This document shows, in pieces, positions 3,187 through 34,372 of a stretch of DNA of 34,495 nucleotides. Position numbers and translations under genes: made by a program. The notes under the pieces are model-generated. The model made no database searches. It was not told the origin of the DNA and worked only from the letters and a program-made list of their open reading frames with translations. This stretch comes from a virus. The stretch's first letter is position 1. The number at the start of each line of letters is the position of its first letter. Where the stretch lies: the UHGV virus genome UHGV-0366749; one strand, written 5' to 3'.

Positions 3187-3483
3187 ATGCTGACGAAAGA
3201 ACCATCATTTGCATCGCTGCTGGTAAAACAAAGCCCGGCAATGCACTACGGTCACGGCTGGATCACGGGTGAGGATGGAAAACGCTGGCATCCATGTCAT
3301 TCACAAGATGAATTGCTGTCTGAATTGACCACGAGGAAACGGAGAAAGTCCAAATGTATGCGGCAGAAAGTGAAGTGGTTTATCAGTTTCGTTACAGAGG
3401 GGAGAGTTATTCAGTACCTGAAGATGATTTGCTCTGTTGCTATCCGTCATTGTCGGGCGATGGCAGTTACTTTTTCACGTTAA
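3187..3483 (+). CDS. Hypothetical early protein
   Basis: ATG at 3187 preceded by GAGGTG; overlaps the next ORF in another frame, so one of the two may be mis-called. Confidence 0.3.
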   Translation: MLTKEPSFASLLVKQSPAMHYGHGWITGEDGKRWHPCHSQDELLSELTTRKRRKSKCMRQKVKWFISFVTEGRVIQYLKMICSVAIRHCRAMAVTFSR

Positions 3484-4470: not shown

Positions 4471-5324
4471 GCACCATCCTGAAATGGGCGGGAAATAAAA
4501 CCGCCATTATGCCAGAACTGAAAAAATACCTTCCTGCTGGCCCGCGACTGGTTGAACCTTTCGCGGGTTCCTGTGCTGTGATGATGGAAACGGATTATCC
4601 CAGCTATCTGGTTGCGGATATTAATCCTGATTTAATCAACCTCTATAAAAAGGTTGCCGCTGATTGTGAATCGTTTATATCTCGCGCCAGAGTTTTATTT
4701 GAGATCGCAAACAGGGAGGTGGCTTATTACAACATAAGGCAGGAGTTTAACTGCTCAACTGAAATTACTGATTTCATGAAAGCGGTATATTTCCTGTATC
4801 TTAATCGTCACGGTTACCGTGGTTTATGTCGCTATAACAAGAGCGGGCATTTCAACATCCCCTACGGTAATTATAAAAATCCGTATTTCCCTGAAAAAGA
4901 ACTTCGCACATTTGCAGAAAAAGCCCAGCGAGCAACGTTTATCTGCGCCAGCTTTGATGAAACGCTGGCGATGTTGAAGGCGGGAGATGTGGTGTATTGC
5001 GATCCGCCGTATGACGGTACGTTTTCCGGCTATCACACTGATGGTTTCACTGAAGATGACCAGTATCACCTGGCATCCGTTCTTGAACATCGGTCATCAG
5101 AAGGACATCCAGTCATTGTTTCTAACAGTGACACATCCCTGATCCGTTCGCTGTATCGCAATTTTACTCACCACTATATCAAGGTAAAACGCAGCATCGG
5201 TGTGGCAGCTGGCGAGGGTAAATCAGCAACAGAAATCATTGCTGTTTCCGGGCCGCGCTGCTGGATGGGATTTGATTATTCGCGTGGCGTGGATAGTTCT
5301 GCCGTGTACGGAGTACGTGCATGA
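4467..5324 (+). CDS. dam: DNA adenine (N6) methyltransferase, Dam family
   Basis: N-terminal ILKWAGNK…PFAGSCAV (AdoMet-binding) and the DPPY catalytic motif; start overlaps the upstream stop (ATGA) and the stop overlaps the gene A start. Confidence 0.85.
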
Positions 5325-7735
5325 GTCATGCCGATATGAACAACTGCTGCGGCTTTAACGAGGCTGCCGCAGCATTCTCATGGAACAGCCCGAAAAAGGC
5401 CATTAACCCTTATCTGGACCCGGCGGAAGTTGCGCCGGTTTCTACGCTTTCAAACCTGATCACTCTGTACGCTGCCGATAACGAGCAGGAACAGTTGCGC
5501 CGCGAGGCACTGAGTGATCAGGTCTGGGAGCGTTATTTCTTTAATGAATCACGTGATCCTGTCCAGCGCGAAATGGAGCAGGATAAGCTCATTAGCCAGG
5601 CAAAGCTGGCGCATGAGCAGCAGCGTTTTAATTCAGACATGGTCATTCTGGCGGACGTCAACGCCCAGCCTTCCCATATCAGCAAGCCGCTGATGCAACG
5701 TATTGAATACTTCAGCAGCCTGGGCAGGCCAAAGGCTTATTCCCGCTATTTACGTGAGACGATTAAGCCATGTCTGGAACGACTGGAGCATGTACGCGAC
5801 AGTCAGCTATCTGCATCTTTTCGCTTTATGGCAAGCCATGAAGGGCTGGACGGCCTGCTGATCCTGCCTGAAATGAGTCAGGATCAGGTGAAACGCCTGT
5901 CCACCCTGGTAGCTGCGCATATGAGTATGTGCCTTGATGCAGCTTGTGGTGATTTGTATGCCACCGATGACGTTAAGCCAGAAGAAATCCGCAAGACATG
6001 GGAAAAGGTGGCAGCGGAAACCCTGCGTCTGGATGTCATCCCACCTGCGTTTGAGCAACTCCGTCGGAAAAGAAACCGCCGTAAACCCGTGCCCTATGAA
6101 CTCATTCCGGGTTCGCTGGCGCGTATGTTGTGCGCCGACTGGTGGTACCGGAAATTATGGAAGATGCGTTGCGAATGGCGGGAAGAGCAGTTGCGCGCTG
6201 TTTGCCTGGTCAGCAAAAAAGCATCTCCTTATGTCAGCTATGAAGCCGTGATGCATAAACGTGAGCAGCGCCGTAAGTCGCTGGAGTTTTTCCGTTCTCA
6301 TGAACTGGTGAACGAAGACGGCGACACGCTGGACATGGAGGATGTGGTAAACGCCAGCAGCAGCAACCCTGCGCATCGCCGCAATGAGATGATGGCCTGT
6401 GTTAAAGGTCTGGAGCTTATCGCGGAAATGCGCGGTGACTGCGCCGTTTTCTACACTATCACCTGTCCGTCGCGTTTCCATTCCACGCTAAATAACGGCA
6501 GACCAAACCCGACCTGGACAAACGCGACGGTAAGACAAAGCAGCGATTATCTGGTCGGCATGTTTGCTGCATTTCGTAAGGCGATGCACAAAGCCGGGTT
6601 GCGCTGGTATGGCGTGCGGGTGGCTGAGCCGCATCATGATGGCACAGTTCACTGGCACCTGTTGTGTTTCATGCGCAAAAAAGACCGCCGTGCCATCACT
6701 GCATTACTGCGTAAGTTTGCCATCCGTGAAGACCGCGAGGAGCTGGGCAATAACACTGGGCCGCGCTTTAAGTCTGAGTTGATTAACCCGCGCAAAGGAA
6801 CGCCGACAAGCTACATCGCGAAATATATCAGTAAGAACATTGACGGTCGTGGTCTGGCTGGCGAGATCAGCAAGGAAACGGGTAAATCTCTGCGTGATAA
6901 CGCTGAATACGTGAATGCCTGGGCGTCTCTGCATCGTGTTCAGCAATTCCGCTTCTTTGGTATTCCGGGGCGTCAGGCTTACCGTGAACTTCGCTTGCTG
7001 GCTGGTCAGGCGGCAAGGCAACAGGGTGACAAAAAAGCAGGTGTGCCGGTACTGGATAACCCGCGTCTTGATGCCATTCTGGCTGCTGCTGATGCTGGTT
7101 GTTTTGCCACCTACATCATGAAGCAGGGCGGCGTACTGGTTCCCCGTAAATATCACCTCATCAGAACCGCTTATGAAATCAACGAAGAGCCGACCGCCTA
7201 TGGCGATCACGGCATTCGTATTTATGGCATCTGGTCACCCATTGCAGAGGGCAAGATCTGCACTCATGCAGTGAAGTGGAAAATGGTTCGTAAAGCCGTT
7301 GACGTTCAGGAGGCGGCAGCCGACCAGGGCGCTTGCGCCCCTTGGACTCGTGGCAATAACTGTCCCCTTGCTGAAAATTTGTACCAACAAGGGAAAGACA
7401 AATCAGCTGATGGGGATACCAGAACGGATATCACCCGCATGGATGACAAGGAATTGCACGATTACCTGCACAGTATGAACAAAAAAGAGCGCCGGGAACT
7501 GGCTGCAAGGTTACGCCTGGTGAAACCGAAACGGCGTAGAGACTACAAACAGCGAATTACAGATCATCAGCGACAGCAGCTCGTCTATGAACTGAAGTCC
7601 AGAGGATTTGATGGCAGCGAGAAAGAGGTCGATTTACTCCTTCGCGGTGGCAGTATTCCGTCAGGAGCAGGCCTGCGTATCTTCTATCGGAACCAGCGTT
7701 TGCAGGAAGATGATAAGTGGCGGGATCTGTATTAA
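5321..7735 (+). CDS. A: Rolling-circle replication initiation endonuclease (P2 gpA family)
   Basis: 804 aa with an HUH-type motif ([10 protein letters not shown]), the size and position of P2/186 gene A. Confidence 0.9.
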
Positions 7736-7804
7736 TTACGCGGGTTAACAATTCGTGCTCTTAATAATACCAGGCATATCAGGCTGATGAACGTAAAAAA
7801 ACGT

Positions 7805-7833
7805 TTTACATCAGTGAGATTATTATATACTGT
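7805..7833 (+). promoter_or_regulatory. Sigma70-like promoter (-35 TTTACA, 17-bp spacer, -10 TACTGT) overlapping a LexA-box-like sequence
   Basis: Read directly from the sequence upstream of the 7888 ORF. Confidence 0.4.
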
Positions 7834-7847
7834 AAATATAACCAGTG
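7828..7847. promoter_or_regulatory. Candidate LexA (SOS) operator
   Basis: TACTGTAAATATAACCAGTG against consensus TACTGTATATATATACAGTA: CTGT-N8-CCAG with one mismatch in the right half; overlaps the putative -10. Confidence 0.45.
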
Positions 7848-7887
7848 GTTATGTATACAGTATTGCTTTGGTGTCATAGGAGGAAAG

Positions 7888-8076
7888 ATGCAGGACTATT
7901 TTTTGGAGTCTTTGAAGCTCCAGCGCATTGATTTTTTTCTTAAGCTTGTAGCGGCTAGTGAGTGTAGTGATGAAGAGAAGGGGCTGGCCCTGCAGTGGGT
8001 TTCTGAACTGACAGATGAACTCATGGCAAAAATCAGAACCCATGAATACAACCGCTCAATGGATGTCATCAGCTGA
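7888..8076 (+). CDS. Small SOS-operon protein (62 aa), possible Tum-like N-terminal module
   Basis: Strong RBS TAGGAGGA before the ATG; immediately downstream of the LexA-box-like promoter and upstream of the DinI-like gene. Confidence 0.5.
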   Translation: MQDYFLESLKLQRIDFFLKLVAASECSDEEKGLALQWVSELTDELMAKIRTHEYNRSMDVIS

Positions 8077-8086
8077 GGTGACTTTT

Positions 8087-8320
8087 ATGCGCATTGAAAT
8101 AATGATCGATAAAGAGCAGAAGATTAGCCAGTCTACACTGGACGCCCTTGAATCCGAGCTTTACCGCAATCTGCGCCCCCTGTATCCCAAAACGGTAATT
8201 CGTATCCGCAAAGGTAGCTCTAACGGTGTGGAACTGACCGGACTGCAACTGGACGAAGAAAGAAAACAAGTGATGAAAATTATGCAGAAGGTCTGGGAGG
8301 ACGACAGCTGGTTACACTAG
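8087..8320 (+). CDS. dinI: DinI-family protein
   Basis: 77 aa (MRIEIMIDKEQKIS…IMQKVWEDDSWL) resembling E. coli DinI from memory; GAGGTG RBS. Confidence 0.8.
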   Translation: MRIEIMIDKEQKISQSTLDALESELYRNLRPLYPKTVIRIRKGSSNGVELTGLQLDEERKQVMKIMQKVWEDDSWLH

Positions 8321-8326
8321 CGAACG

Positions 8327-8361
8327 TTGCGGACGATAAAACTGGTTTTTATCGTCCGCAA
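8327..8361 (+). terminator. Hairpin downstream of the dinI-like gene
   Basis: Perfect 15-bp inverted repeat ttgcggacgataaaa / ttttatcgtccgcaa with a 5-nt loop. Confidence 0.45.
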
Positions 8362-8526
8362 GGTTGAACAACGAGCCGCGTGAGGCGTTAGAAACGGGTA
8401 GTGAAAAGTGATTTAAGAATGCCTTGTTCCCCTGAAACTTTGGCCTATGCAACAACATTCGACAGCTTTCTTGATTATCATAAGTAACTTGAAGTTTAGG
8501 GACGATTCTGATGGTATACGTGAAAA

Positions 8527-9726
8527 ATGTATCGTGTGTTGCTTTGGCAAAAAGGAGTTTTAGTGGACAACGGCTCAATCACCTTCTTTGATATTACTGC
8601 TTGTGGGTTTTATCGTTTAAAGAATAAACCCGAAGAGCTTGATTATAAATTCGGCGATCTTATGGGGGTTTTGGACGATTTAGAAGGGTGGCTCAAGGAT
8701 AAAAATTTTGAGCAGACTCTCCCATGGAATAAAGAAGAACAACCTCTGCGAACACGAGTTTACAGTCGAGGCCTTGTGAGGGACAGCCAGACTAAAGATG
8801 CAGTAATTGTTTTATACCGTGAAGTGGGGAACGGTAACGGAATACATGGTATTAAGGTCGGTTCTAAAGTAAGTGGTGATAGTAAAGGAACCATTAGGGC
8901 GGGAAGAGAACATGGTGAGGATAAAATAATTTGGGGTGAACCCTGCTATTACTGGATTATTCCTGAGTTGAATAAAATAGCATCAATCAGATTCCCCCAT
9001 TCTTTCGCTGATACTTATCTCTTCGCACAATACTTCATTCAGCATGTAAATAATAATAGTAAGTTAGGTAAAAGAACGAAATCTAAGCGTACATTTGAAT
9101 CAGCTAAGACCCCTGGTCGTTGTGTGGATGTCTACAATACTAAGTTTCAATATAAAGATGGCAAAAATGAGATAAACTGTATCTTCAAGTTTGTATTGGA
9201 AGAAACAAAACTTAAAGCCGCTGAGGAAAACTTTGAAAGGTTAAGGCATAAAATTACACACACATTGATAAAGGATACAACGGTAATAAACCAAAATGAC
9301 ACAAGGCAACCATTGTTGAAGCTAACAAGTGTAGCTTTAGCATCTCTGGTGGGTGAAGAAAAGCGTAATAAGCTTATTGGGGCACCTCCTGTTTTGGAGC
9401 AGCCTCGTAAAATTGAAGTTAAAATTGACGGTGCACCATCATCGGATGAGCTTCGAAATCTCTTCTCAATGAGAGGTGAAGAGTCTGAATGGGATGTGGG
9501 TTTTTTACTGGCTGATCGTGCTAATCCGGTTTGGCTCAGTAGCTATGTAGCCAGGACTAAACTTCCTCTTCAAGATTCGGATGGGTTTGAGCATTATTCA
9601 GCGCGTTTTTTACTGGATGAAATAAACAAAATTCGTGATGATTTGATTAGTGAAGTAAAATATGCTGAGGAAGCATCCATTAAAGAATCTGAAGCTGCAT
9701 CCACAAAAAAGATAGCGGAAGGTTGA
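8527..9726 (+). CDS. Uncharacterised 399-aa soluble protein, gene 1 of a coupled two-gene accessory cassette
   Basis: Long ORF in a sharply AT-rich island at the P2 tin/old position. An in-frame GTG at 8563 with AAGGAG 5 nt upstream is the more likely start. No Walker A, CD-NTase, reverse-transcriptase or other motif recognised. Confidence 0.7.
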   Translation: MYRVLLWQKGVLVDNGSITFFDITACGFYRLKNKPEELDYKFGDLMGVLDDLEGWLKDKNFEQTLPWNKEEQPLRTRVYSRGLVRDSQTKDAVIVLYREVGNGNGIHGIKVGSKVSGDSKGTIRAGREHGEDKIIWGEPCYYWIIPELNKIASIRFPHSFADTYLFAQYFIQHVNNNSKLGKRTKSKRTFESAKTPGRCVDVYNTKFQYKDGKNEINCIFKFVLEETKLKAAEENFERLRHKITHTLIKDTTVINQNDTRQPLLKLTSVALASLVGEEKRNKLIGAPPVLEQPRKIEVKIDGAPSSDELRNLFSMRGEESEWDVGFLLADRANPVWLSSYVARTKLPLQDSDGFEHYSARFLLDEINKIRDDLISEVKYAEEASIKESEAASTKKIAEG

Positions 9727-9727
9727 T

Positions 9728-10264
9728 ATGACAGAAACGGAAGGTTTGATAATAACAGTTGCAAAACAGCAGGCGATTAATTTTGTTGCTGTTGTTTTGT
9801 GCTGCGTTATAAGCTATTTTTCGTTCAAAAGTTTTTCCTATAATGATGCAAAAGATATTTTAGGTGCGCTTATAAATATTTCAGCATCTATATTCACTAT
9901 TGTCGGTTTATGGGTCGGTTTTTTATATCCGAATGCAATGAATAGTATTGTTAAGGATGATGTAAGTTATATAAAAAATGAGCATGACTCACCAAGAATA
10001 GAGAAATTAGTTTATACAATAATCACATCTGCTTGTGTTATGGCTGGGATTCTAATTTTCTTTTTGGTTAAGGCAGTGTTTTATGCATTACCTGTTTATC
10101 AAGCTAATAAAGACTTGTTTAAATACATTGGTATTTTCTTCATTTACTTTATTAGCTGGATGCAATTAAAATGCGTTATGAGCCTGATTTTGAGTAATTT
10201 ACATTTTGTTAATCACTTACATGGACGTTTAGCAAAAGCGAAATTAGAACACTATGATGAATAA
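9728..10264 (+). CDS. Small membrane protein (178 aa, about four predicted TM helices), gene 2 of the cassette
   Basis: Start overlaps the gene 1 stop (TGATATG); four hydrophobic stretches (e.g. AINFVAVVLCCVISYFSF, LVYTIITSACVMAGILIFFLV); AT-rich. Confidence 0.75.
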   Translation: MTETEGLIITVAKQQAINFVAVVLCCVISYFSFKSFSYNDAKDILGALINISASIFTIVGLWVGFLYPNAMNSIVKDDVSYIKNEHDSPRIEKLVYTIITSACVMAGILIFFLVKAVFYALPVYQANKDLFKYIGIFFIYFISWMQLKCVMSLILSNLHFVNHLHGRLAKAKLEHYDE

Positions 10265-10478
10265 AGTGTTCGTATTGGCAGGAGTTACTGTGGATGTTTA
10301 ACCTCAACAAGAGTAAGCCTCCTTTAACATGGGAATCACCGTTCTAACAAGCTTTGCATGTCTATGCTGCATGAATCCGCATGATCGTTTTAGGATCGTT
10401 TTTGCTGAGGCCCGCCAGAACTGGCGGGCTTTTGCTTATGTCATACACCTGCATGAAAACCACTACATAAAGCGGGCA

Positions 10479-10497
10479 GGCGTGGCGGGGATACGAG
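10479..10497. other. cos: Putative cos cohesive-end site
   Basis: GGCGTGGCGGGGATACGAG; the first 13 nt match the recalled 186 cohesive end GGCGTGGCGGGGAAAGCAT (P2: GGCGAGGCGGGGAAAGCAC); in an intergenic gap where the phage right and left arms should meet. Confidence 0.45.
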
Positions 10498-10542
10498 CGC
10501 GCGCTAACTCATAAATCCTAGATTATTAGTGGATTTATCTCA

Positions 10543-12366
10543 TTGAAATGTGCACTATTCCCAGCATTGAGTTGTACCAGATGTCTTTATGGAGGGACTG
10601 TGGCTTTTGTAACTGATATTCGGCTTGAAGATAATGCTATTGCTGCACCTGCGACAGCACAGGTTATGGCTCAGAGGCTAGGATCTGTATTACGTAAGAG
10701 ATATGAAGAATTCATCCATAAAAGAGAGTGTGCACCAGGCCAAGCAGACTATGATGTAAAAATGGCTAGCAGGGCTTTAGCTGCATTCACTATGTATCAG
10801 TTAGGATGTGTGGATGATAAGTATGCAGGGGAGTCTGTATGTGATAGTAGTGAAGATGGTGGTATAGATGGAATAGCAATCAACCATAACGAAAAAATCG
10901 TTGTTGTTGTTCAATCAAAATTTCACCAATCGGGAAACGGCACTTGGACAAGAGCCGATTTTATGTGTTTTAAGGATGCTTGTGAGAAGCTACAAAGTGA
11001 AAGATACGAATTATTTGATTCCATATTGCAAAATAAAAGCGGGGAAATAAGTGCGGCTTTAAGTAGTTTTGAATACAAGTTCATCTTTGCGATGGCGCAT
11101 ACAGGTAAAAAAGGTGCTGCAGAGGAAATATTAAATGATATGCGGGAATGGCAATATCAATTAAACGCTGCAGCTTTTACACCTGAGGATGAGCCTAAAG
11201 AGAACTGGGGATTTCAGGTTCATTTAATATCCTCTGAAGATATGATGCATTGGTTACAGAATGGCTCTCGAAATCAAATTGATCTTAACAGGGTTGAAAT
11301 TGAGCGTTTTGGATTTTTGAATGAACCATATCAAGCTTTTTACGGGGCTATTAGTGGTGATCAAGTTGCAGAATGGTGGGAAGAGCATGGTGCTCGATTA
11401 TTTACAAAAAACATAAGGAATATGCTTGGTAAAACAGAAGTGAATGAGGAAATAAAAAAGACAGCTATAGATAATCCTGATATGTTTTGGTTTTATAATA
11501 ATGGGATTACTGTACTGGTTAAGGAGGTTGTTCCTCATAGACGAAACGCAGCTCCTAATATAGAGAGAGGGATTTTTGATTTTCGTGATGTAAGTGTAAT
11601 TAATGGTGCACAAACAGTCAGTAGTATTGGCGCATGTAAAGATGCGCTTGGTGAAAACATATATAGACTCAAAGTGCCAGCTAGATTCATTGTTATAGAT
11701 GATGATACTGATAATTTAACTGCAAATGCGATTACAAAAGCTAACAATTTCCAAAATAGAGTATTGGGAAGGGATTTTGCGTCGCAGCAGGCAGATCAAC
11801 ATAGATTGGCAAGGGAGTTAGTGCTTGAAGGATATCAATATCAGTTACTAAGAACAGATGAAGATCATTCACAGACAAATACGAAAGTCATTGACTTGGA
11901 TGAGGCGCTCAATGCACTCGCATGTTTAAGTAAAAATAATACGGTTGTATCGACACTAAAATCAAATCGCGGTAGGTTTTTTGAAAATTTTGAAGGCTCT
12001 CTATATAAAACTATTTTCAATCCAAGATTAAGTGGTTTAAAACTTATCAATACTGTTCTACATTTTAGAGTTATAGATAAGTTGATCGGTAAAACATTAC
12101 TATCAGTAGATAAAACTACCCATAGTCGCAAGCATTTAATTATTACGCATGGTAATAGATACTATGCGTCTGTGCTATTGAGCAACGTTTCTGGGATACA
12201 TAATAGCTCAGAAATTCTTGTTCCAGATGAAAAAAATCTTTCAGAAGAATTAAGTGCATTAATTCAACGTGCTGAAGAGTACATTGAAGATAATTACCCG
12301 AATGCCTATCCGGCAAGATTTTTTGCAAATCCAACGAAAATACAAGAGTTATACGATAATGTTTAA
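10543..12366 (+). CDS. AIPR-like abortive-infection protein with an N-terminal Mrr-like PD-(D/E)xK nuclease motif
   Basis: SEDGGIDGIAINHNEKIVVVVQSKF fits the Mrr catalytic core (DGGIDG…QxK); an NGITVL…INGAQT segment lies mid-protein; AT-rich. Start is uncertain (TTG 10543, GTG 10600 after GGAGGG, or ATG 10666). Confidence 0.7.
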   Translation: MKCALFPALSCTRCLYGGTVAFVTDIRLEDNAIAAPATAQVMAQRLGSVLRKRYEEFIHKRECAPGQADYDVKMASRALAAFTMYQLGCVDDKYAGESVCDSSEDGGIDGIAINHNEKIVVVVQSKFHQSGNGTWTRADFMCFKDACEKLQSERYELFDSILQNKSGEISAALSSFEYKFIFAMAHTGKKGAAEEILNDMREWQYQLNAAAFTPEDEPKENWGFQVHLISSEDMMHWLQNGSRNQIDLNRVEIERFGFLNEPYQAFYGAISGDQVAEWWEEHGARLFTKNIRNMLGKTEVNEEIKKTAIDNPDMFWFYNNGITVLVKEVVPHRRNAAPNIERGIFDFRDVSVINGAQTVSSIGACKDALGENIYRLKVPARFIVIDDDTDNLTANAITKANNFQNRVLGRDFASQQADQHRLARELVLEGYQYQLLRTDEDHSQTNTKVIDLDEALNALACLSKNNTVVSTLKSNRGRFFENFEGSLYKTIFNPRLSGLKLINTVLHFRVIDKLIGKTLLSVDKTTHSRKHLIITHGNRYYASVLLSNVSGIHNSSEILVPDEKNLSEELSALIQRAEEYIEDNYPNAYPARFFANPTKIQELYDNV

Positions 12367-12370
12367 ACTA

Positions 12371-12394
12371 AAGGGAGGTTGCCTCCCTTTTTTA
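12371..12394. terminator. Bidirectional rho-independent terminator between the AIPR-like gene and Q
   Basis: aagggagg-ttgc-cctccctt hairpin with an A-tract on one side and a T-tract on the other. Confidence 0.6.
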
Positions 12395-12395
12395 A

Positions 12396-13424
12396 TTAGA
12401 AATGGTATTCTTGGAATTCAATAACACCTTCTTTTATGAAATTGTTTATTTCTTGTAATCTTTTTTGCAATGGCAATAATTCATTACGTACAAATACTTT
12501 ACTCGCCTTCTCTACATCTCCAAAGCCCCCAACATTATTAGGCATTATCCCCATCATTTGCGGTGGCACACGATGCGCCGCCATCATGTCATCCCGGCTC
12601 ACGTTCTTGATGTTTAGAAACTCATCCTTCGCCGCCACTTCTGACAACGGGATAATCTGAAGTCCGTCCTTTTTCCCGTTAGGCGAGTACATAAACAGGT
12701 TGCGGAAGTTACCTGGTCCTTTGGCGCTTTTCATCGCATTGCGGAGGTTGTTCACATCCTCCTGGTTTTGCGCGGCATCGGTCATGTACATGATGAAGCC
12801 TGCATGACTGCCGTTAATGTAATACTTTCGGCGGAACAGCGTGGCGGACTCGTTGAGCAGGGCTGACGGAATGGCAGAAAGGTAACCTGGCAGGCCGTAG
12901 ATCTCTTGGTTGATGTCCGGTTCCATCAGATGAAAGATGCTTCCTTTCGTGAACTGATATGGCTGCGTGGTCATACCGTATTGCACAAACCAGTAGGTAT
13001 CCAGGTCTAACCCGCGTCGGGTGTATTTTGCCAGGGCAGGTTCAAGGGCGATAACTTCACCGAAGCGGTTAGTGCGTTTCTCCAGGTAGGCGTTACCAAA
13101 AACCAGATAGTCCTGCACAAAACGTGAAAAAGCCTGCTGGCTGAGCAGCGGGTGAGGGATATAGGTGCTGGACAGAATGTTGCACTTTACTGCAATCGGG
13201 GAGCTGTGATGTACGGCAGCGCGGAAGGTTCGCGCCAGCCCGTCGAAACTCACTGGTGGCTCATACCAGCGGTCCATCTGTACGCATTCCACATAGTCCA
13301 GTAATTCGCGGCGGTCCAGAACAGGAACGGGATCACCGAAGCTGAATGCTTCGGCTGAAGTTTGGCTTTTATGCTTGAGCTGATTCGTCGCCGCAGCGCG
13401 GTTTTTCTTACTCTTTCCCATCAA
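12396..13424 (-). CDS. Q: Portal protein (P2 gpQ family)
   Basis: 342 aa, upstream partner of the terminase on the minus strand; start overlaps the P stop. Confidence 0.9.
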   Translation of the reverse strand: MMGKSKKNRAAATNQLKHKSQTSAEAFSFGDPVPVLDRRELLDYVECVQMDRWYEPPVSFDGLARTFRAAVHHSSPIAVKCNILSSTYIPHPLLSQQAFSRFVQDYLVFGNAYLEKRTNRFGEVIALEPALAKYTRRGLDLDTYWFVQYGMTTQPYQFTKGSIFHLMEPDINQEIYGLPGYLSAIPSALLNESATLFRRKYYINGSHAGFIMYMTDAAQNQEDVNNLRNAMKSAKGPGNFRNLFMYSPNGKKDGLQIIPLSEVAAKDEFLNIKNVSRDDMMAAHRVPPQMMGIMPNNVGGFGDVEKASKVFVRNELLPLQKRLQEINNFIKEGVIEFQEYHF

Positions 13425-15187
13425 AAAATCTCCACAATATTGCTGGTATTGGCGGATTCGCCCTGCAGCGGTTCGTTAAACAGTGCGTGCATCGTTGCCC
13501 AGGCCAGATCGGCGTGGCTGGCTTCTTCGCTGCGGCTGGCTTCATAGGTCGGGCGGTTGCCGCTGGCGGTTGTGGCGCGACGGATTGCCATGAATGACTG
13601 CGCAATGTCGGTGTGTCCGGCGTCAAACTCCAGACGGCGGTGGCTGATAATGTCGTAGGCCTTGAGTACCAGGGCGTTTTTAACGTTGGGGTTGTAGACA
13701 AACTCCCGGACGGCAGGAAAGAACGCTTTTACGTTCTCATAAACCCCGTGACCGACACCTGTCGAGTCGATACCGATATAGGTCACGTTGTACTGTTCAG
13801 TCAGTTTTTTGATGGCGTCCGCCTGGGCACGGAAGTCCATCCCGCGCCACTGGTGACGCACAAGAATGCGGAACTTACCGCCCGGCACGGCTGGCGGAGC
13901 CACCACCACGCATCCGGCACTGTCGCCGTTCTGCGTACCTTTTGCCGGGTCATAACCGATCCACACCTCGCGCCAGCCAAACGGGCGCAGGGCCAGTGCA
14001 TGAAAGTCGGTCCAGACTTCCCAACTGTCCACCATGCACGCCTGCAGTTCGCTGAGCGGGAACACGGACGCGAGATCGTCCACGAACTCGCACATCAGCA
14101 GGTTCTGGTATTCGTCCGGGCTGTACTCCATGCGCAACTGGTCGAGATCGAACAGGTTACAGCCGCCGCGCACCGCATCTTCCACGGTGACTATCTGGCG
14201 GTATTGCCCGTCTGCGCACAGCAGGCCGGGGGCCAGATTGTTGTGGGACAGGTCTATGTCCACCTTATCGGCTTTGTTGCGCCCACGGTTGAACAGCGCA
14301 CCGGACCAGAACGGATAAGCACTATGAGTCAGGCTGGATGGCGTGGAAAAATAGGTTTGTCGCCATTTCTTGTGAATAGCCATGCCGGAAGCCACTTTGC
14401 GCAGCTCCTGGAATTTCGGTATCCAGAAATATTCATCCAGATACAGGTTGCCGTGGTAACTCTGGGCCGTGCGGGCATTGGTGCCGAGGAAGTAAAGTGT
14501 GGCTCCGTTAGGAAGAACCATCGGATCGCCTTTCAGCTCCACCTCGACTTCTTTGGCGAAGTCTATGATGTACTGCTTAAAGACGTGAGCCTGTGCCTTA
14601 CTGGCGGAAAGGAAAATCTGGTTACGTCCGGTAAGCAGGGCGTCAATCAGGGCTTCACGGGCAAAGTAAAAGGTCGCGCCGATCTGGCGAGACTTCAGCA
14701 GGTTGCGGATGCGATTGGTTTTTCCGGCTTCCCACCAGTGGCGCTGGTAGTTGAACATGGAGGAATGGAAGATTTCTTCCAGCTTCTCAATCTGTTCATC
14801 GGTGAAAACATTCTTTTCCGGCTGACGGCGCGGCCCTTTGTTGCGGTTGGCGACGTTAGGGTTTAAGTCGGCTTCGTTGCCGCCATTGTTAAACTTGCCG
14901 ATCCGCGCGTGGCGCTCCGACTGGCGCGCCAGCAGGTCAATTTCTTTGAAATCTTTCCCTTCTTTGTGCTCCTTCATAATGAGCTGGCAGTAGCGGGCGG
15001 CGGTGGTGAGCTGCATCTGATCCAGCGGCCCATAGTCACCCCACTTGTCGCGTTTTTTCCAGCTGTGAACGGTTGCAACTTTCTCGCCCAGCATTTCAGC
15101 AATGCGGGCTACGCGGTATCCCTGAAAGTACAGCAGCATGGCCTGCCGACGGGGATCGAGATCTGCGGGTGTCAGTGTGGTGTTCAT
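13421..15187 (-). CDS. P: Terminase large subunit (P2 gpP family)
   Basis: 588 aa, P2 gpP-like, divergent from O. Confidence 0.9.
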   Translation of the reverse strand: MNTTLTPADLDPRRQAMLLYFQGYRVARIAEMLGEKVATVHSWKKRDKWGDYGPLDQMQLTTAARYCQLIMKEHKEGKDFKEIDLLARQSERHARIGKFNNGGNEADLNPNVANRNKGPRRQPEKNVFTDEQIEKLEEIFHSSMFNYQRHWWEAGKTNRIRNLLKSRQIGATFYFAREALIDALLTGRNQIFLSASKAQAHVFKQYIIDFAKEVEVELKGDPMVLPNGATLYFLGTNARTAQSYHGNLYLDEYFWIPKFQELRKVASGMAIHKKWRQTYFSTPSSLTHSAYPFWSGALFNRGRNKADKVDIDLSHNNLAPGLLCADGQYRQIVTVEDAVRGGCNLFDLDQLRMEYSPDEYQNLLMCEFVDDLASVFPLSELQACMVDSWEVWTDFHALALRPFGWREVWIGYDPAKGTQNGDSAGCVVVAPPAVPGGKFRILVRHQWRGMDFRAQADAIKKLTEQYNVTYIGIDSTGVGHGVYENVKAFFPAVREFVYNPNVKNALVLKAYDIISHRRLEFDAGHTDIAQSFMAIRRATTASGNRPTYEASRSEEASHADLAWATMHALFNEPLQGESANTSNIVEIF

Positions 15188-17241: not shown

Positions 17242-17892
17242 ATGAGCCTGAGTCCCGCACGGCAGCATCGCCTGCGCGTTCAGGCTGAACAGGCCGCCCG
17301 CGAGGGCGGCAGCGTTCGCCACGCGTCGGGCTATGACCTGATGCTGCTGCAACTGGCAGAAGACCGCCGCCGTCTCAAGGGCGTTCAGTCCACGGTCAAA
17401 AAAGCGGAAATCAAGGTGGAGCTGCTGCCGAAATACGCCGCCTGGGCGGAGGGTGTCCTGGCTGCCGGAGGCGCTCAACAGGATGACGTGCTGATGTACG
17501 TGATGCTGTGGCGCATTGATGCCGGAGATTATGTCGGAGCGCTGGAGATCGGGCGTCATGCCCTGCGTCATGGCTGGGTGATGCCGCTGGGTAACCGCAA
17601 CGTGCAGACCGTGCTGGCAGAGGAAATGGCAGACGCAGCGCAGAGCGCAATGCTTGCCACTACCGGCTTTGATGCCGATCTGTTGCTGCAGACGCTGGAG
17701 CTGACAGACGGTCTGGATATGCCGGACCAGTCACGGGCGCGTCTGCATAAAGCGATTGGCGCTGTCCTGTGTGAAAGCAACCCGGCTTCCGCCCTTAATC
17801 ATCTCAACCATGCGTTACAGCTCGATCCCCGCTGTGGCGTGAAAAAAGACAAACAGCAGCTGGAGCGCAGACTGCGCAATGACAGCCGCTGA
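17242..17892 (+). CDS. M: Terminase small subunit / endonuclease (P2 gpM family)
   Basis: P2 gpM-like (…QDDVLMYVMLWRIDAGDYVGALEI…MPDQSRARLHK…). Confidence 0.85.
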   Translation: MSLSPARQHRLRVQAEQAAREGGSVRHASGYDLMLLQLAEDRRRLKGVQSTVKKAEIKVELLPKYAAWAEGVLAAGGAQQDDVLMYVMLWRIDAGDYVGALEIGRHALRHGWVMPLGNRNVQTVLAEEMADAAQSAMLATTGFDADLLLQTLELTDGLDMPDQSRARLHKAIGAVLCESNPASALNHLNHALQLDPRCGVKKDKQQLERRLRNDSR

Positions 17893-20322: not shown

Positions 20323-20767
20323 ACTGCAGAAGGTGGACGACTGGCTGAGTGCTTTGCTGGCGAATCTGGAACCAGCCGCAAGAAGCCGAATGATGCGCCA
20401 GCTGGCGCAGGAACTGCGCCGGACACAGCAGCAGAATATCAGGATGCAGCGCAATCCAGATGGCAGCAGTTATGAGCCGCGCAGGGTAACAGCACGCAGC
20501 AAGAAGGGGCGCATCAAACGTCAGATGTTTGCAAAGCTGCGCACCACAAAATACCTGAGAACTGCCGCCAGCGCGGATTCTGCCAGCGTACAGTTTGAAG
20601 GTAAGGTACAGCGTATTGCCCGTGTTCATCACTACGGTCTGCGCGATCGCGTCAGTCCAAAGGGGGGAGTCATTAAGTATCCATCCCGAAAATTGCTGGG
20701 TTTAAATGAACATACTGAAAATGAAGTAAGAGATTTACTTTTAAAGTATTTATTGATGAAAAATTAG
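20315..20767 (+). CDS. S: Tail completion / virion morphogenesis protein (P2 gpS family)
   Basis: Position and size; the 3' end runs into AT-rich DNA. Confidence 0.7.
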   Translation: MAELQKVDDWLSALLANLEPAARSRMMRQLAQELRRTQQQNIRMQRNPDGSSYEPRRVTARSKKGRIKRQMFAKLRTTKYLRTAASADSASVQFEGKVQRIARVHHYGLRDRVSPKGGVIKYPSRKLLGLNEHTENEVRDLLLKYLLMKN

Positions 20768-20772
20768 AATGT

Positions 20773-21303
20773 TTACGCTCTTAATAAACTTAAATAACTT
20801 TTTATGCTTTGGCAAAAAGGGAAAAGGTCTATTTTAATTTTCCAGTTTTTTTTGTTTTGAACCCCAGAAGCAATAATAGAACCGTCCCAATATTTTATTC
20901 CATTTTTGCCGGTCTTTTTTGTTAACTCAAAACTTAATGCGTGAATAATTTTATTGCAGCATTCGCGTATAGAATCTTTAACATGACCATCTATAACAAA
21001 AAGTATATTTTCATGTTCTTCAAATGCTTCTTTCTCAGGTGAGTAATCTGGGTTCCACTCATGTTCACTAGTGTCTTGGAGAATTCGTAGTTTTGTACAA
21101 AGGCTAATAAGATTGTTGCTAATGGTATATTCCAACCATCCGTTGTACGATAACTCCTCCATTTCAAATTCAGTTACTATAGAACCATCATATACTTTCT
21201 GTGTGGAATATATACGCTGTAAATAAAATTCAGATGAACAGCATAATTGCTCAATTATTCTTGCGTGTTCTTCTATAGCGTAATAATCAATTGGATGGCT
21301 CAT
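20773..21303 (-). CDS. Uncharacterised 176-aa protein encoded by an AT-rich insertion between S and V
   Basis: Reverse-strand ORF in a low-GC block between two conserved late genes. Start set at the second ATG (MSHPIDYY…) after an AAAGG-type RBS; the first ATG is at 21342. No recognised motif and no TM segment. Confidence 0.6.
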   Translation of the reverse strand: MSHPIDYYAIEEHARIIEQLCCSSEFYLQRIYSTQKVYDGSIVTEFEMEELSYNGWLEYTISNNLISLCTKLRILQDTSEHEWNPDYSPEKEAFEEHENILFVIDGHVKDSIRECCNKIIHALSFELTKKTGKNGIKYWDGSIIASGVQNKKNWKIKIDLFPFCQSIKSYLSLLRA

Positions 21304-21334
21304 TCTTTTACCTTTCTTTGATTGGAATTGTATT

Positions 21335-21352
21335 TGTGTCATTTACCACACA
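21335..21352. promoter_or_regulatory. Possible late-promoter TGT-N12-ACA element upstream of V
   Basis: TGTGTCATTTACCACACA, 47-64 bp upstream of the V start; weaker match than the O and FI elements. Confidence 0.25.
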
Positions 21353-21398
21353 AGGACGTATTGATGCCATAGATTCAAGGTCCGTGCAACCTAACCCT

Positions 21399-21977
21399 AT
21401 GAACGCACAACTAACCGAAATCATGCGCCTTATCACCAACCTGATCCGCACTGGTGTAGTCACCGAAGTGGACCGGGAAAACTGGCTTTGCCGGGTGAAA
21501 ACGGGCGAGCTTGAAACCAACTGGATCAGCTGGCTGACGCTGCGTGCCGGGAATGCCCGCACATGGTGGCGACCATCGGAAGGTGAGCAGGTGGTGCTGC
21601 TGAGTCTGGGCGGCAATCTGGAAACTGCCTTTGCGCTGCCCGCTGTCTATTCGAATCAGTTCGCACCACCGTCGACGTCGGCAGACGCCTGCGTGACAGA
21701 ACATCCTGACGGCGGCTGGTTTGAATACGAACCCACTACCGGGCGCTGGTATGTCAGGGGCATCAAATCAATGGTCATTGAGGCCGCTGACAACATCACC
21801 ATGAAAACCAGTGAGTTTGTACTGGAGGCTGACCGCACGCGCATTAACAGCGAAGTGGTGATCAATGGTGGCGTTACCCAGGGCGGCGGAGCGATGAGTT
21901 CTAACGGGATCGTGGTTGATGCGCATCAGCATACTGACGTCCTGAAAGGCGGCGACACAACCGGAGGCCCGGTATGA
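21399..21977 (+). CDS. V: Baseplate spike/assembly protein (P2 gpV family)
   Basis: N-terminus MNAQLTEIMRLITNLIRTGVVTEVD resembles P2 gpV; start taken at this ATG rather than the upstream ATG at 21291. Confidence 0.85.
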   Translation: MNAQLTEIMRLITNLIRTGVVTEVDRENWLCRVKTGELETNWISWLTLRAGNARTWWRPSEGEQVVLLSLGGNLETAFALPAVYSNQFAPPSTSADACVTEHPDGGWFEYEPTTGRWYVRGIKSMVIEAADNITMKTSEFVLEADRTRINSEVVINGGVTQGGGAMSSNGIVVDAHQHTDVLKGGDTTGGPV

Positions 21978-23826: not shown

Positions 23827-25214
23827 GCACAAAATTTTATACCCTGCTGACGGATATTGGCGCGGCGAAACTTGCCAGCGCCGCCGCGCTCGGTGTGCCG
23901 CTAAAAATTACCCATATGGCGGTGGGCGATGGCGGCGGAACATTGCCAACGCCGGACGCCAAGCAGACAGCATTGGTAAATGAGAAACGCCGGGCTGCGC
24001 TGAATATGCTCTATATCGACCCGCAGAACAGCAGCCAGATTATTGCTGAACAGGTGATCCCTGAAAACGAGGGCGGTTGGTGGATACGTGAAGTGGGCCT
24101 GTTTGATGAGTCCGGGGCATTGATTGCCGTGGGCAACTGCCCGGAAAGCTATAAGCCGCAACTGGCTGAAGGCAGCGGGCGTACCCAGACCGTGCGCATG
24201 GTGCTGATTACCAGCAGCACGGACAATATCACCCTGAAAATCGACCCTGCCGTAGTGCTGGCAACCCGCAAGTATGTGGATGACAAGGTACTGGAGCTGA
24301 AGGTGTACGTGGATGATCAGATGGCAAAACATCTTGCCGCACCGGACCCGCATTCACAGTATGCACCCAAAGAAAGTCCGACGTTTACCGGGACACCAAA
24401 AGCGCCAACTCCAGCGGCAGGGAATAACACCACGCAGGTTGCGACCACCGCGTTTGTTCAGGCGGCACTGACGGCTCTTATTAATGGTGCGCCAGCCACG
24501 CTGGACACGCTGAAAGAAATAGCCGCAGCCATTAACAATGATCCGAATTTCAGTACCACCATTAACAATGCGCTGGCACTGAAAGCGCCGTTGTCGAGTC
24601 CGGCACTCACCGGAACGCCAACAGCCCCCACTGCTGCACAGTCGGTCAACAATACACAGATTGCCACCACGGCTTTTGTGAAATCGGCGATTGCAGCAAT
24701 GGTAGGTTCTGCACCTGCGGCACTGGATACACTGAACGAACTGGCGTCGGCGTTGGGGAATGATCCGAACTTTGCCACGACAATGCTTAATGCGCTGGCA
24801 GGTAAACAACCGCTGGACAATACGCTGACTAATTTGAGTGGAAAGGATGTCGCTGGTCTTCTCGCATTCCTTGGTTTGGGAGAAGCCAGATATGTCATTC
24901 AGCGAGGAGCTAATGCCAATGGTGCGTGGATACGCTGGTCAGATGGTGCAATAGAAGTATTTGGAACTGGTGGTTCCAATGATAATGGGCTGGCTAAAGT
25001 CGTTTATCCAATTGCACTACCTAAGCTTTCACGTTTTATCAGCATAGCGGAAAGAATAAGAACAGATTACGAGGCCACACCTAATAACGTTCACGTTTCA
25101 ATGATCGTGGATGACCAGGTCAGTAATACAGGTTTTTATGTCCGCTGCCAGATGTACGACGGAAGACCATCAACAAGTGCTTTTTCCTGGAGAGTTTATT
25201 GTGCGCCTGTTTAA
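23823..25214 (+). CDS. H: Tail fibre protein (P2 gpH family); C-terminal part lies inside an invertible segment
   Basis: 463 aa with tail-fibre-type internal repeats (…NNTTQVATTAFV… twice); the reading frame crosses the left crossover site at 24871..24890. Confidence 0.85.
   Translation: MSTKFYTLLTDIGAAKLASAAALGVPLKITHMAVGDGGGTLPTPDAKQTALVNEKRRAALNMLYIDPQNSSQIIAEQVIPENEGGWWIREVGLFDESGALIAVGNCPESYKPQLAEGSGRTQTVRMVLITSSTDNITLKIDPAVVLATRKYVDDKVLELKVYVDDQMAKHLAAPDPHSQYAPKESPTFTGTPKAPTPAAGNNTTQVATTAFVQAALTALINGAPATLDTLKEIAAAINNDPNFSTTINNALALKAPLSSPALTGTPTAPTAAQSVNNTQIATTAFVKSAIAAMVGSAPAALDTLNELASALGNDPNFATTMLNALAGKQPLDNTLTNLSGKDVAGLLAFLGLGEARYVIQRGANANGAWIRWSDGAIEVFGTGGSNDNGLAKVVYPIALPKLSRFISIAERIRTDYEATPNNVHVSMIVDDQVSNTGFYVRCQMYDGRPSTSAFSWRVYCAPV
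24871..24890. repeat. Left crossover site of the invertible segment (hix/gix-like)
   Basis: ttggtttgggagaagccaga is the exact reverse complement of 26308..26327; the left copy lies inside the tail-fibre ORF (encoding GLGEAR). Confidence 0.6.
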
Positions 25215-25398
25215 TCCTGTTACTTTGACTGAAGTAATCCCCGGTCTTCATGACGTGACCGGGGCTGTGGAATTACCAGAAGATAACTGGTTTTTTACTG
25301 CATCTGAAATCCCTGAAGGAATGGAAATATCTGTTAACGAGAAGGGCGAACCCATTCTGATTGAGATTAAACCATCTCAGGTGGAACTGGCCAGATAA
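25201..25398 (+). CDS. Putative tail-fibre assembly chaperone (current orientation)
   Basis: Short ORF just after H inside the invertible segment. Start is uncertain (GTG 25201 after GGAGAG, or ATG 25138). Confidence 0.35.
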   Translation: MRLFNPVTLTEVIPGLHDVTGAVELPEDNWFFTASEIPEGMEISVNEKGEPILIEIKPSQVELAR

Positions 25399-25633
25399 CC
25401 CCCGGCGTGGTGCTGGTATCTGATTCCATCACCGCGTCGATATTACCAACATCATATTCAGTCATTTCCGGTTCCGGTGGCGCTATAAACTCTCCGTCAG
25501 AATAGAACCAACCGACGCCTGCATCTATATGATCAATATTTATAATTTCGCAGTTAGAGAATAAATCACCATCTCCATCCCAGATAATAATATTTTTCAC
25601 CACGCCATGTTCAATCAGAGCAAAATTACTCAT
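25367..25633 (-). CDS. Alternative tail-fibre assembly chaperone (Tfa-like), silent in this orientation
   Basis: 88 aa ending …GVIWPVPPEMV, matching the conserved WPxPP C-terminus of Tfa proteins as recalled; GAGGAG RBS. Confidence 0.55.
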   Translation of the reverse strand: MSNFALIEHGVVKNIIIWDGDGDLFSNCEIINIDHIDAGVGWFYSDGEFIAPPEPEMTEYDVGNIDAVMESDTSTTPGVIWPVPPEMV

Positions 25634-26327
25634 CAGGCATACTCCTCAACAATAACTATTCCCGGGGCACCGTCACCTCCCGATTGAGCCTCACTTCCGG
25701 CAGGTGCGCAGGCTCCGCCTCCGCCAGCACCAAAGCCCTCAGCTTTACCACCACCACGTCCGCTGAATGATGAAGAACTTGCACCACCTATACCGCCTGA
25801 ACCTAGTGGTGTATCCCCCCCGGTACCACCTGCAACAGCTTTAACAGAGATAACCATTGCACCTGGTGTTTTTGCACTACAGCGAAATGCTCTTAGTACA
25901 GTACCGGACGATGTCGGACTGGCACCCCATGAAATACCCTGAATATATGATGTGTTTGCAGATGCTCCCCCCGCGCCACCGCCTGTACCACCCGGTGCAG
26001 TTATCAGGGAACCGAAATAAGTTGTGCCACCTTCACTACCTGAATTTCTTCCGGCTCCCCCCCCTTTACCTGCAGCACCGATAATAACGTTGACTTCGAA
26101 ATCATTATCAACCTCGAAAAATGCTTCAATAAATGCACCGCTCAATCCAGCTCCGGCTGTTGCCTGCTGATTTTCTGTTGTTTCTGGAACCCCACCGCCG
26201 CCGCCACCGCCACCAGAGGCAATGACCCTTATCTTTTTTGTCCCTGGTGTTGGGATATATTTTCCAGAGCTTTTAAAAATATTCGTGTTTAACAAACGAC
26301 CAGAGAATCTGGCTTCTCCCAAACCAA
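25633..26327 (-). CDS. Alternative Gly-rich tail-fibre C-terminal exon (promoterless), fused to H after inversion
   Basis: Reverse-strand frame continuous from the right crossover site (encoding GLGEAR in the same frame as H) through a Gly-rich region to the stop at 25633. Confidence 0.55.
26308..26327. repeat. Right crossover site of the invertible segment
   Basis: tctggcttctcccaaaccaa, reverse complement of 24871..24890. Confidence 0.6.
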
Positions 26328-26388
26328 CGTTTATGAAAATGCAGAGATAACGGCTAACTGGCATCATCTCCGGTTTTTATTCAGGGGG

Positions 26389-26961
26389 ATGATCATGCTT
26401 ATTGGCTATGTACGCGTGTCAACAAATGACCAGAACACCGATTTGCAACGTAATGCACTGAACTGCGCGGGATGTGAGCGGATTTTTGAGGATAAAATCA
26501 GTGGCACTAAGTCCGACAGACCGGGGCTGAAAAAGCTGCTCAGGACACTATCGGCAGGAGACACGCTGGTTGTCTGGAAGCTGGACAGGTTGGGGCGCAG
26601 TATGCGGCATCTTGTTACGCTGATAGAGGAGTTGCGCCAGCGTGGTGTGAATTTCCGAAGCCTGACTGACAGTATTGATACCAGTACCCCAATGGGCCGT
26701 TTCTTTTTTCATGTCATGGGTGCCCTGGCTGAAATGGAACGCGAACTGATAGTTGAACGTACTAGGGCAGGGCTGGCTGCAGCTCGTGCCAAAGGCAGAG
26801 TAGGTGGACGCCGTCCTAAGTTGACCACCGAACAGTGGGCACAGATTGGGCGTTTACTCGAGGCCGGAGAATCAAGACAGCGTATTGCACTGATTTTTGA
26901 TGTGGGTGTTTCCACAATTTATAGAAAATTTCCGGCAAATAAGAGTAATGAATCCCCCTGA
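26389..26961 (+). CDS. Serine DNA invertase (Hin/Gin/Cin/Pin family)
   Basis: N-terminal GYVRVSTNDQ… resolvase/invertase catalytic motif with Ser, and a C-terminal HTH; 190 aa. Confidence 0.9.
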   Translation: MIMLIGYVRVSTNDQNTDLQRNALNCAGCERIFEDKISGTKSDRPGLKKLLRTLSAGDTLVVWKLDRLGRSMRHLVTLIEELRQRGVNFRSLTDSIDTSTPMGRFFFHVMGALAEMERELIVERTRAGLAAARAKGRVGGRRPKLTTEQWAQIGRLLEAGESRQRIALIFDVGVSTIYRKFPANKSNESP

Positions 26962-34326: not shown

Positions 34327-34340
34327 CAACAAAAAACCCA
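34327..34340. repeat. attR: Putative attR core (direct repeat with 151..164)
   Basis: aacaaaaaacccat, identical to the left copy. Confidence 0.4.
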
Positions 34341-34372
34341 TCAACCTTGAACCGAAATGGCGGGGTTGATGG
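34336..34372 (+). terminator. Hairpin overlapping attR (likely the original host terminator)
   Basis: Perfect 10-bp stem cccatcaacc / ggttgatggg after an A-run. Confidence 0.4.

Follow-up and report, generated by a model that had tools for sequence, protein, structure and literature searches.

The 34,495-nucleotide viral genome UHGV-0366749, the whole of which is referred to here as the window, contains a 19-nt string (GGCGTGGCGGGGATACGAG, positions 10479–10497, + strand) that resembles the annotated cohesive ends of P2-family phages. This locus raises the question of whether the string is the cos cleavage site of the element and, if it is, whether the accessory genes on its two sides form one island or two separate sets of cargo that would lie at opposite ends of the packaged chromosome.

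The window contains an apparently complete P2-type prophage

At the left of the window are genes for an integrase (239–1447, − strand) and a CI repressor (1687–2343, − strand). The + strand then encodes the replication endonuclease gpA (5321–7735; Pfam Phage_GPA, E = 1.4e-127), at which the gpA-gpQ hotspot begins on the left. A small ORF follows, and then a + strand gene for a DinI-like (Tum-like) protein (8087–8320; Pfam DinI, with a RefSeq CDS at the same place in relatives), the last of the conserved backbone genes ahead of the left cargo; its presence suggests that the prophage, like 186, may be SOS-inducible. To the right of the predicted cos site, the − strand carries genes for the portal protein (12396–13424; Pfam Phage_portal), a homolog of P2 Q that has the position and strand of Q by cosL, and for the terminase large subunit (13421–15187; Pfam Terminase_6N, Terminase_6C, and Terminase_5), the homolog of P2 P. 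Right of P are scaffold, capsid, and M genes and then lysis and tail genes; the M homolog (17242–17892, + strand; Pfam Phage_term_smal, E = 4e-40) is the terminase small/endonuclease subunit. As expected for a cos site of this family, both subunits of the terminase (the M and P homologs) are encoded on the same element as the predicted cos site. The site has the replication and accessory genes on one side and Q and P, which are read divergently, on the other, with the 19-nt sequence in the orientation found in the P2 record.

At its ends the window matches the rcdA and ybjL sequences that border E. coli prophages integrated at this position, and the element is apparently a complete Fels-2/Cartapus-type P2-family prophage of this E. 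coli locus. A direct repeat of 14 nt (AACAAAAAACCCAT) is present at 151–164 and 34328–34341, with partial similarity that reaches ∼13 nt further left; this repeat is probably the att core, bounding a prophage of ∼34.2 kb in the rcdA-ybjL interval. The window contains no tRNA gene.

The 19-nt sequence aligns in register with P2-family cohesive ends

A sequence-only reading of this DNA had proposed that the first 13 nt of the string are shared with the cohesive end of phage 186 and that the last six positions differ. The 186 record (NC_001317) begins with GGCGTGGCGGGGAAAGCAT, which is annotated as a cohesive end, and its first 13 nt are indeed those of the window (GGCGWGGCGGGGA). The second part of the proposal holds, relative to 186, for four of the six positions (14, 16, 17, and 19) and fails for positions 15 and 18, which are A in both sequences. 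In register, the window agrees with 186 at 15 of the 19 positions and with P2, the record of which (NC_001895) begins with the annotated cohesive end GGCGAGGCGGGGAAAGCAC, at 14. The 19-nt sequence had a single match in the 34.5-kb window even when three mismatches were allowed, and it matched none of 100 shuffled sequences; its 13-nt prefix also occurs once in the window, and shuffled sequences averaged 0.09 matches with one mismatch.

Alignment of the window with the circularized P2 and 186 junctions, SEN8, Fels-2, and Yersinia phage MLG42 showed that the 19-nt sequence is preceded by AAAGCGGGC(A/G) and followed by (C/T)GCGCGC. The flanks align in register with those of P2 and 186, and with those of P4 as well. 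An ungapped alignment places the equivalent of the P2/P4 shared core at 10450–10504 (+ strand), where the window is identical to P2 at 42 of 55 positions, to 186 at 44, to P4 at 43, and to SEN8 at 54. This 55-bp core is that of Ziermann and Calendar 1990, to which PMC3931495, PMC5694545, and PMC9594776 refer, and the cos region is all that P4, which is otherwise unrelated to P2, shares with that phage (PMC9594776).

The cos sites of 186, PSP3, P2, and the satellite P4 have 19-nt 5′ cohesive ends, like those predicted here. Features common to the coliphage and P4 sites and to the window are the GGCG(A/T)GGCGGGG start of a GC-rich string, as in P2-family (Peduoviridae) cos sites in general, the left and right flanks given above, TGCAT-AAAACC at −28, GCAT at −123, −110, and −100, and a location beside Q and P. 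The end of the 19-nt sequence is ATACGAG in the window, in contrast to AAAGCAT/C in the 186/P2 group. An identical 19-nt sequence stands at the start of the record of the Salmonella phage SEN8, where it is annotated by similarity as a “putative cos site,” and at positions 33–51 of the record of Cartapus (E. coli LF82), inside a feature annotated “putative cos site, homologous to the cos of P2 phage.” Taken as a whole, the match, the register of the flanks, and these annotations agree with the earlier proposal that the site is cos, and 10479–10497 is almost certainly the cos sequence of a Fels-2/P2-type E. coli prophage, as judged from sequence.

A 151-bp block around the predicted cut is conserved

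When the window was compared with 119 IMG/VR loci that contain the exact 19-nt sequence, identity per position was high from −124 to +26 relative to the predicted cut and random outside these limits. The conserved cos block defined in this way (10355–10505, + strand; 151 bp) consists of 124 bp to the left of the cut, the 19-nt sequence, and 7–8 bp to its right, and the 55-bp core within it is near-invariant among the 119 loci. BLAST matches to Fels-2, SopEPhi, RE2010, and Yersinia and Klebsiella phages are restricted to 10355–10505, and SEN8, Fels-2-type elements, and Cartapus have the same block limits as the window. The block has a GC content of 53.6%, against 50–56% for the backbone and 31–39% for the adjoining cargo.

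Three GCAT motifs are located at the left of the block (10356–10359, 10369–10372, and 10379–10382, + strand; −123, −110, and −100 from the cut), and a fourth (TGCATGAAAACC) is at the start of the 55-bp core (10451–10454, + strand; −28). The same four offsets from the left nick are found in 186, P4, SEN8, and Fels-2, and in P2 except that the first motif is at −122. They are also kept in loci of Chitinimonas (Betaproteobacteria), the flanks of which are only ∼55% identical, and four or more GCAT motifs occur in only 0.08% of the 124-nt windows of the whole sequence. At the corresponding offsets phiCTX has GCAG in place of GCAT, which suggests co-variation with its terminase. From this conservation we infer that the GCAT motifs are terminase recognition sites, and the M homolog is the presumed reader of the block.

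The block also contains a GC-rich hairpin (10407–10437, + strand; GCCCGCCAG..CTGGCGGGC, followed by TTTTGCTT), which was identified by separate folding of this segment and is absent from the list produced by the terminator scan. Its predicted free energy is −23.6 kcal/mol (z = −4.8), none of 200 shuffled sequences was equally stable, and its GCCAG..CTGGCG arms are also present in 186, P4, and Chitinimonas. The hairpin is likely the terminator of rightward transcription from gpA through the cargo. Since the block does hold a strong terminator-like structure, it could be argued that it is a terminator or regulatory element only, or that a GC-rich string resembles the 186 end by chance. This is extremely improbable, because no shuffled sequence contained the 19-nt string, because the alignment with P2, 186, and P4 keeps its register for 150 bp and P4 has only cos in common with P2, and because the site lies beside Q and P as it does in P2. 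A second hairpin (12370–12390), between the convergent AIPR and Q genes, is terminator-like on the + strand and, given the A-run that adjoins it, could also be a terminator on the − strand.

A 61-codon ORF (10329–10514) crosses the predicted cos site, and its counterparts are annotated as “hypothetical protein” in several phage records (e.g. MLG42). We rejected this ORF as a gene and regard it as an annotation artifact, as only 9 of 116 related loci keep the frame open and the ORF begins outside the conserved block.

In the lambda cos site (cosQ-cosN-cosB), the staggered nicks are made between terminase recognition elements that are asymmetric, with cosB on the left-end side. There is no sequence similarity between lambda cos and the block described here, and the general layout, a nick site with asymmetric flanks, is alike; unlike lambda cosB, almost all of the conserved flank is on the side of the virion right end.

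Distribution of the 19-nt sequence in other genomes

Other carriers of the exact 19-nt sequence are Fels-2, phages of Klebsiella and Yersinia, and >120 IMG/VR contigs. A search of species-representative genomes (596 Gb) found it at 54 loci, mostly in Enterobacterales but also in Chitinimonas. About five of the 54 loci, in Hydrogenedentota, Christensenella, Geobacter, and Anaerolineae MAGs, lack any similarity in the flanks; these are probably chance occurrences, of which we estimate that ∼4 are expected in 596 Gb. A search for P4-like satellites with the same cos variant, by tblastn of P4 psu, delta, sid, and alpha against the 119 IMG/VR loci with the exact sequence, gave only integrase matches.

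No contig in the collections searched terminates at the 19-nt sequence, and a full-text literature search with the string for measured ends of this variant returned only similarity-based annotations (for SEN8 and for the related variants of SEN1/4/5 and Smp131). The records of Midge and Cartapus begin or finish near cos rather than at it and thus carry no information on ends. Because phiCTX has ends of 21 nt and the last third of the 19-nt sequence differs from P2/186 at four positions, the exact nick positions used here are an assumption.

Draft contigs of Escherichia sp. E1V33 and other strains break ∼40 nt to the left of the 19-nt sequence; assembly likely stops at the repeated cos core in strains that have more than one such prophage. 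The enterobacterial type of the sequence is present on five contigs of Chitinimonas sp. BJB300 and on three of C. taiwanensis, with the GCAT array in register at 6 of these 8 copies; the presence of several such contigs per genome indicates that there are several P2-type elements per genome in this distant host. One IMG/VR contig (IMGVR_UViG_3300011853_000021) contains the exact sequence twice, in inverted orientation and ∼3.2 kb apart (6704–6722, + strand, and 3447–3465, − strand), possibly as two adjacent elements or through an assembly chimera.

Candidate defense genes lie on both sides of the predicted cos site

On the left of the block are two genes on the + strand that are separated by 1 nt. 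The first (8563–9726, coordinates taken from the RefSeq CDS in ETEC1749; 39% GC) matches the PADLOC profile PDC-M18A (E = 5.9e-31), and the second (9728–10264; 31% GC) matches PDC-M18B (E = 2.8e-18). With both components matched by adjacent genes on the same strand, this pair is a candidate PDC-M18 system; the pair (8563–10264) has no Pfam or NCBIfam match. On the right is a gene with a GTG start (10600–12366, + strand; 37% GC) that encodes an AIPR family, AbiU-like protein of 588 amino acids. This product matches Pfam AIPR (E = 7.3e-35; 121.5 bits against a cut-off of 25) and PADLOC AbiU (E = 7.4e-25, over profile positions 45–512 of 537), and an identical gene is named “AIPR family protein” in RefSeq. 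Identification of this gene as MzaE was rejected (58 bits against a cut-off of 1050). From these HMM matches, both cargo slots contain candidate anti-phage genes.

The sequence-only reading had placed the two-gene cassette at the right end of the packaged genome and the AIPR-like gene at its left end, before Q. This assignment is supported by the + strand orientation of the 19-nt sequence, with Q and P on the − strand to its right: since the orientation is that of P2, the AIPR gene is expected at the virion left end and the PDC-M18A/B-like pair at the virion right end.

Both positions have precedents. In P2, old and tin are at the right end beside cos, that is, on the gpA side, where the window likewise has AT-rich, defense-related cargo. 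In phiCTX, the ctx toxin gene lies between cosL and the Q homolog, where the window likewise has its Q-side cargo, and in phiRSY1 ORF1–4 occupy the same cosL-Q hotspot. With reference to Dodd and Egan 1996 and Nakayama et al. 1999, PMC5694545 names cosL-Q as a hotspot of foreign genes. The distance from cos to Q is ∼170 bp in P2 and 186, as compared with ∼1.9 kb of cargo in the window; the interval between cos and Q holds genes for a hypothetical protein and an HNH protein in SEN8, a 1.7-kb ORF in Fels-2, and a DUF4145 gene in Cartapus. SEN8, Fels-2, and Cartapus differ from the window in the cargo on both sides, and their cos sites are likewise predicted by similarity.

Sequence comparisons indicate that the two cargo slots assort independently

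The same cargo genes were found in E. coli relatives with different partners. ETEC1749 and its relatives have the same left pair, with 99.6% identity up to 10505, followed by a gene with a GmrSD domain before Q. Strain 3090 has the same AIPR gene, with 99.5% identity from 10355, and a ComF gene and a hypothetical gene on the left; ARL09/232 also has this AIPR gene, with ∼97% identity from 10344, and a DUF2971 gene on the left. Homology with these E. coli relatives breaks at 10355 or at 10505, and SNPs within the block place the junction between ETEC1749-like and 3090-like sequence at 10467–10502, an interval that contains the 19-nt sequence. Across the whole window, tracts of ∼100% identity are shared with ETEC1749 at 7500–10505 and with strain 3090 at ∼10467–14500, and the remainder is 94–99% identical to both. 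This pattern is ordinary mosaicism with one endpoint at cos.

The content of the gpA-gpQ region beside cos is highly variable in IMG/VR relatives, as described for the gpA-gpQ hotspot (Rousset et al. 2022). The interval from the DinI-like gene to the block varies in these relatives from 82 to ∼3,090 bp and the interval from cos to Q from ∼156 to 3,530 bp. When the cargo of the IMG/VR relatives was clustered, 67 loci contained 44 left types and 62 right types in 62 distinct combinations; a single left type can be found beside as many as six right types, and the same applies to right types.

We also compared the 124 bp to the left of the cut between pairs of loci that share one flank. These 124 bp are 99.3% identical in the 98 pairs that share the left and not the right flank, and 87% identical, near background, in the 21 pairs that share the right flank only. 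In 19 of these 21 right-only pairs, divergence reaches to within 4–39 nt of the cut. This contrast shows that the putative recognition region travels with the cargo of the virion right arm and that exchanges resolve in the invariant core.

It is possible to view the gpA-gpQ region as a single island that was acquired as a block, so that the cos-like sequence separates no independent units, and published surveys do count gpA-gpQ as one hotspot (PMC9122126, PMC13586616). The data above make this very improbable, as each side of the window recurs, at 99.5% identity or more, beside a different partner, homology breaks exactly at the cos block, the 67 clustered loci show 62 combinations, and none of 5,426 complete E. 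coli genomes contains both halves together. Instead, the comparisons indicate that the left and right cargo assort independently. The earlier reading of two independent cargo insertions that flank the packaging site is therefore upheld as to independence, given the differing partners, and needs amendment as to “insertions”; because the two halves are exchanged through recombination that has one of its endpoints within the cos core, they are better described as exchangeable slots.

Predicted packaging of the prophage

In the following model, terminase binding, 19-nt nicking, and linear packaging are taken by analogy from the biology of P2, 186, and P4; the identity and register of the sequence, the genes around it, the limits of the block, and the independent assortment of the slots are demonstrated by the comparisons above. 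The terminase formed by the M (17242–17892) and P (13421–15187) homologs would recognize the 151-bp block at 10355–10505, that is, the four GCAT motifs (−123, −110, −100, and −28) and the 55-bp core, and would introduce nicks staggered by 19 nt, after which the DNA would be packaged in linear form. The virion left end would start at 10479 and carry the AIPR/AbiU gene, followed by Q and P; the virion right end would extend to 10497 and carry gpA, the DinI-like gene, and then the PDC-M18A/B-like pair. According to this model, the gpA-gpQ island would consist of two cargo slots, one for each end of the virion chromosome, parted only by the packaging signal, and the slots would be swapped independently between related phages with the short invariant cos core as the usual recombination junction. 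We consider it very likely that 10479–10497 is a cos site at which packaging occurs as in P2 and that it separates two independently exchanging slots.

The main residual alternative to this model, and an improbable one, is that the site is a genuine cos by ancestry but that the prophage is defective and has lost DNA packaging, in which case the description of virion arms would have no present-day meaning. Such a history would fit with the composition of the window, which is a mosaic of several parental tracts, and with the behavior of Cartapus, the virions of which are produced at very low titer and are not propagable (PMC9928086). It is opposed by the presence, as long ORFs, of all of the P2-type head, terminase, tail, lysis, regulatory, and integrase genes, and by a cos core identical to those of many relatives. 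It is also opposed by Cartapus, which matches 91% of the Q-to-end region of the window (12396–34495) at 98.5% identity and whose DNA is encapsidated, as virion DNA from E. coli LF82 is DNase-protected (PMC9928086).

Cos as a possible cause of arm exchange

In 19 of 21 informative pairs, the junctions of left/right exchange fall within ∼35–55 bp centered on the cohesive-end sequence. This clustering could mean that arm swapping is driven by the ends that the terminase makes. One route would be the joining of cohesive ends between co-resident P2-type genomes that share the 19-nt sequence; another would be end-stimulated recombination of the kind known for lambda cos. Ordinary homologous recombination that favors the longest invariant stretch fits the evidence equally, and we think it rather unlikely that the cos site itself drives the two hotspots as opposed to merely lying between them. 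If it does, end-driven arm exchange would explain why defense cargo is found beside cos in both P2 and P4.

Consequences for the analysis of P2-type hotspots

Both the cos site and the two-slot layout have essentially been described already for this phage family and are textbook anatomy, and our understanding of P2 packaging is unchanged. What the present comparison adds is limited to showing explicitly that the locus comprises two slots, meeting at the cos core, that assort independently of each other. Rousset et al. 2022 and a 2026 NAR survey treat gpA-gpQ as one defense hotspot locus “adjacent to cos,” and AbiU is listed among the P2 hotspot systems (PMC13586616). The region is counted once in these surveys, whereas in the present data each half assorts on its own and the cos core is where the two join. 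Because the slots recombine independently, treating them as one locus inflates the number of “arrangements,” and hotspot surveys should split gpA-gpQ at cos into two slots before arrangements of genes are counted. For this prophage, the predicted site fixes the virion map, that is, which defense genes would be at which end of the chromosome, and it identifies the 151-bp signal as the segment to be retained in any engineered derivative or cosmid.

Two other segments of the prophage are variable. The segment at 20500–21400, between the tail-completion and baseplate genes, does not align with either close relative and holds an opposite-strand ORF of 189 amino acids (20773–21342) for which Pfam gave no match; this segment is possibly a third cargo slot. 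The tail-fiber segments within 25000–26961 do not align with close relatives either. There, a serine invertase gene (26389–26961; Pfam Resolvase and HTH_7) adjoins oppositely oriented tail-fiber and tail-fiber-assembly segments, in what looks like a Cin/Hin-type invertible host-range switch.
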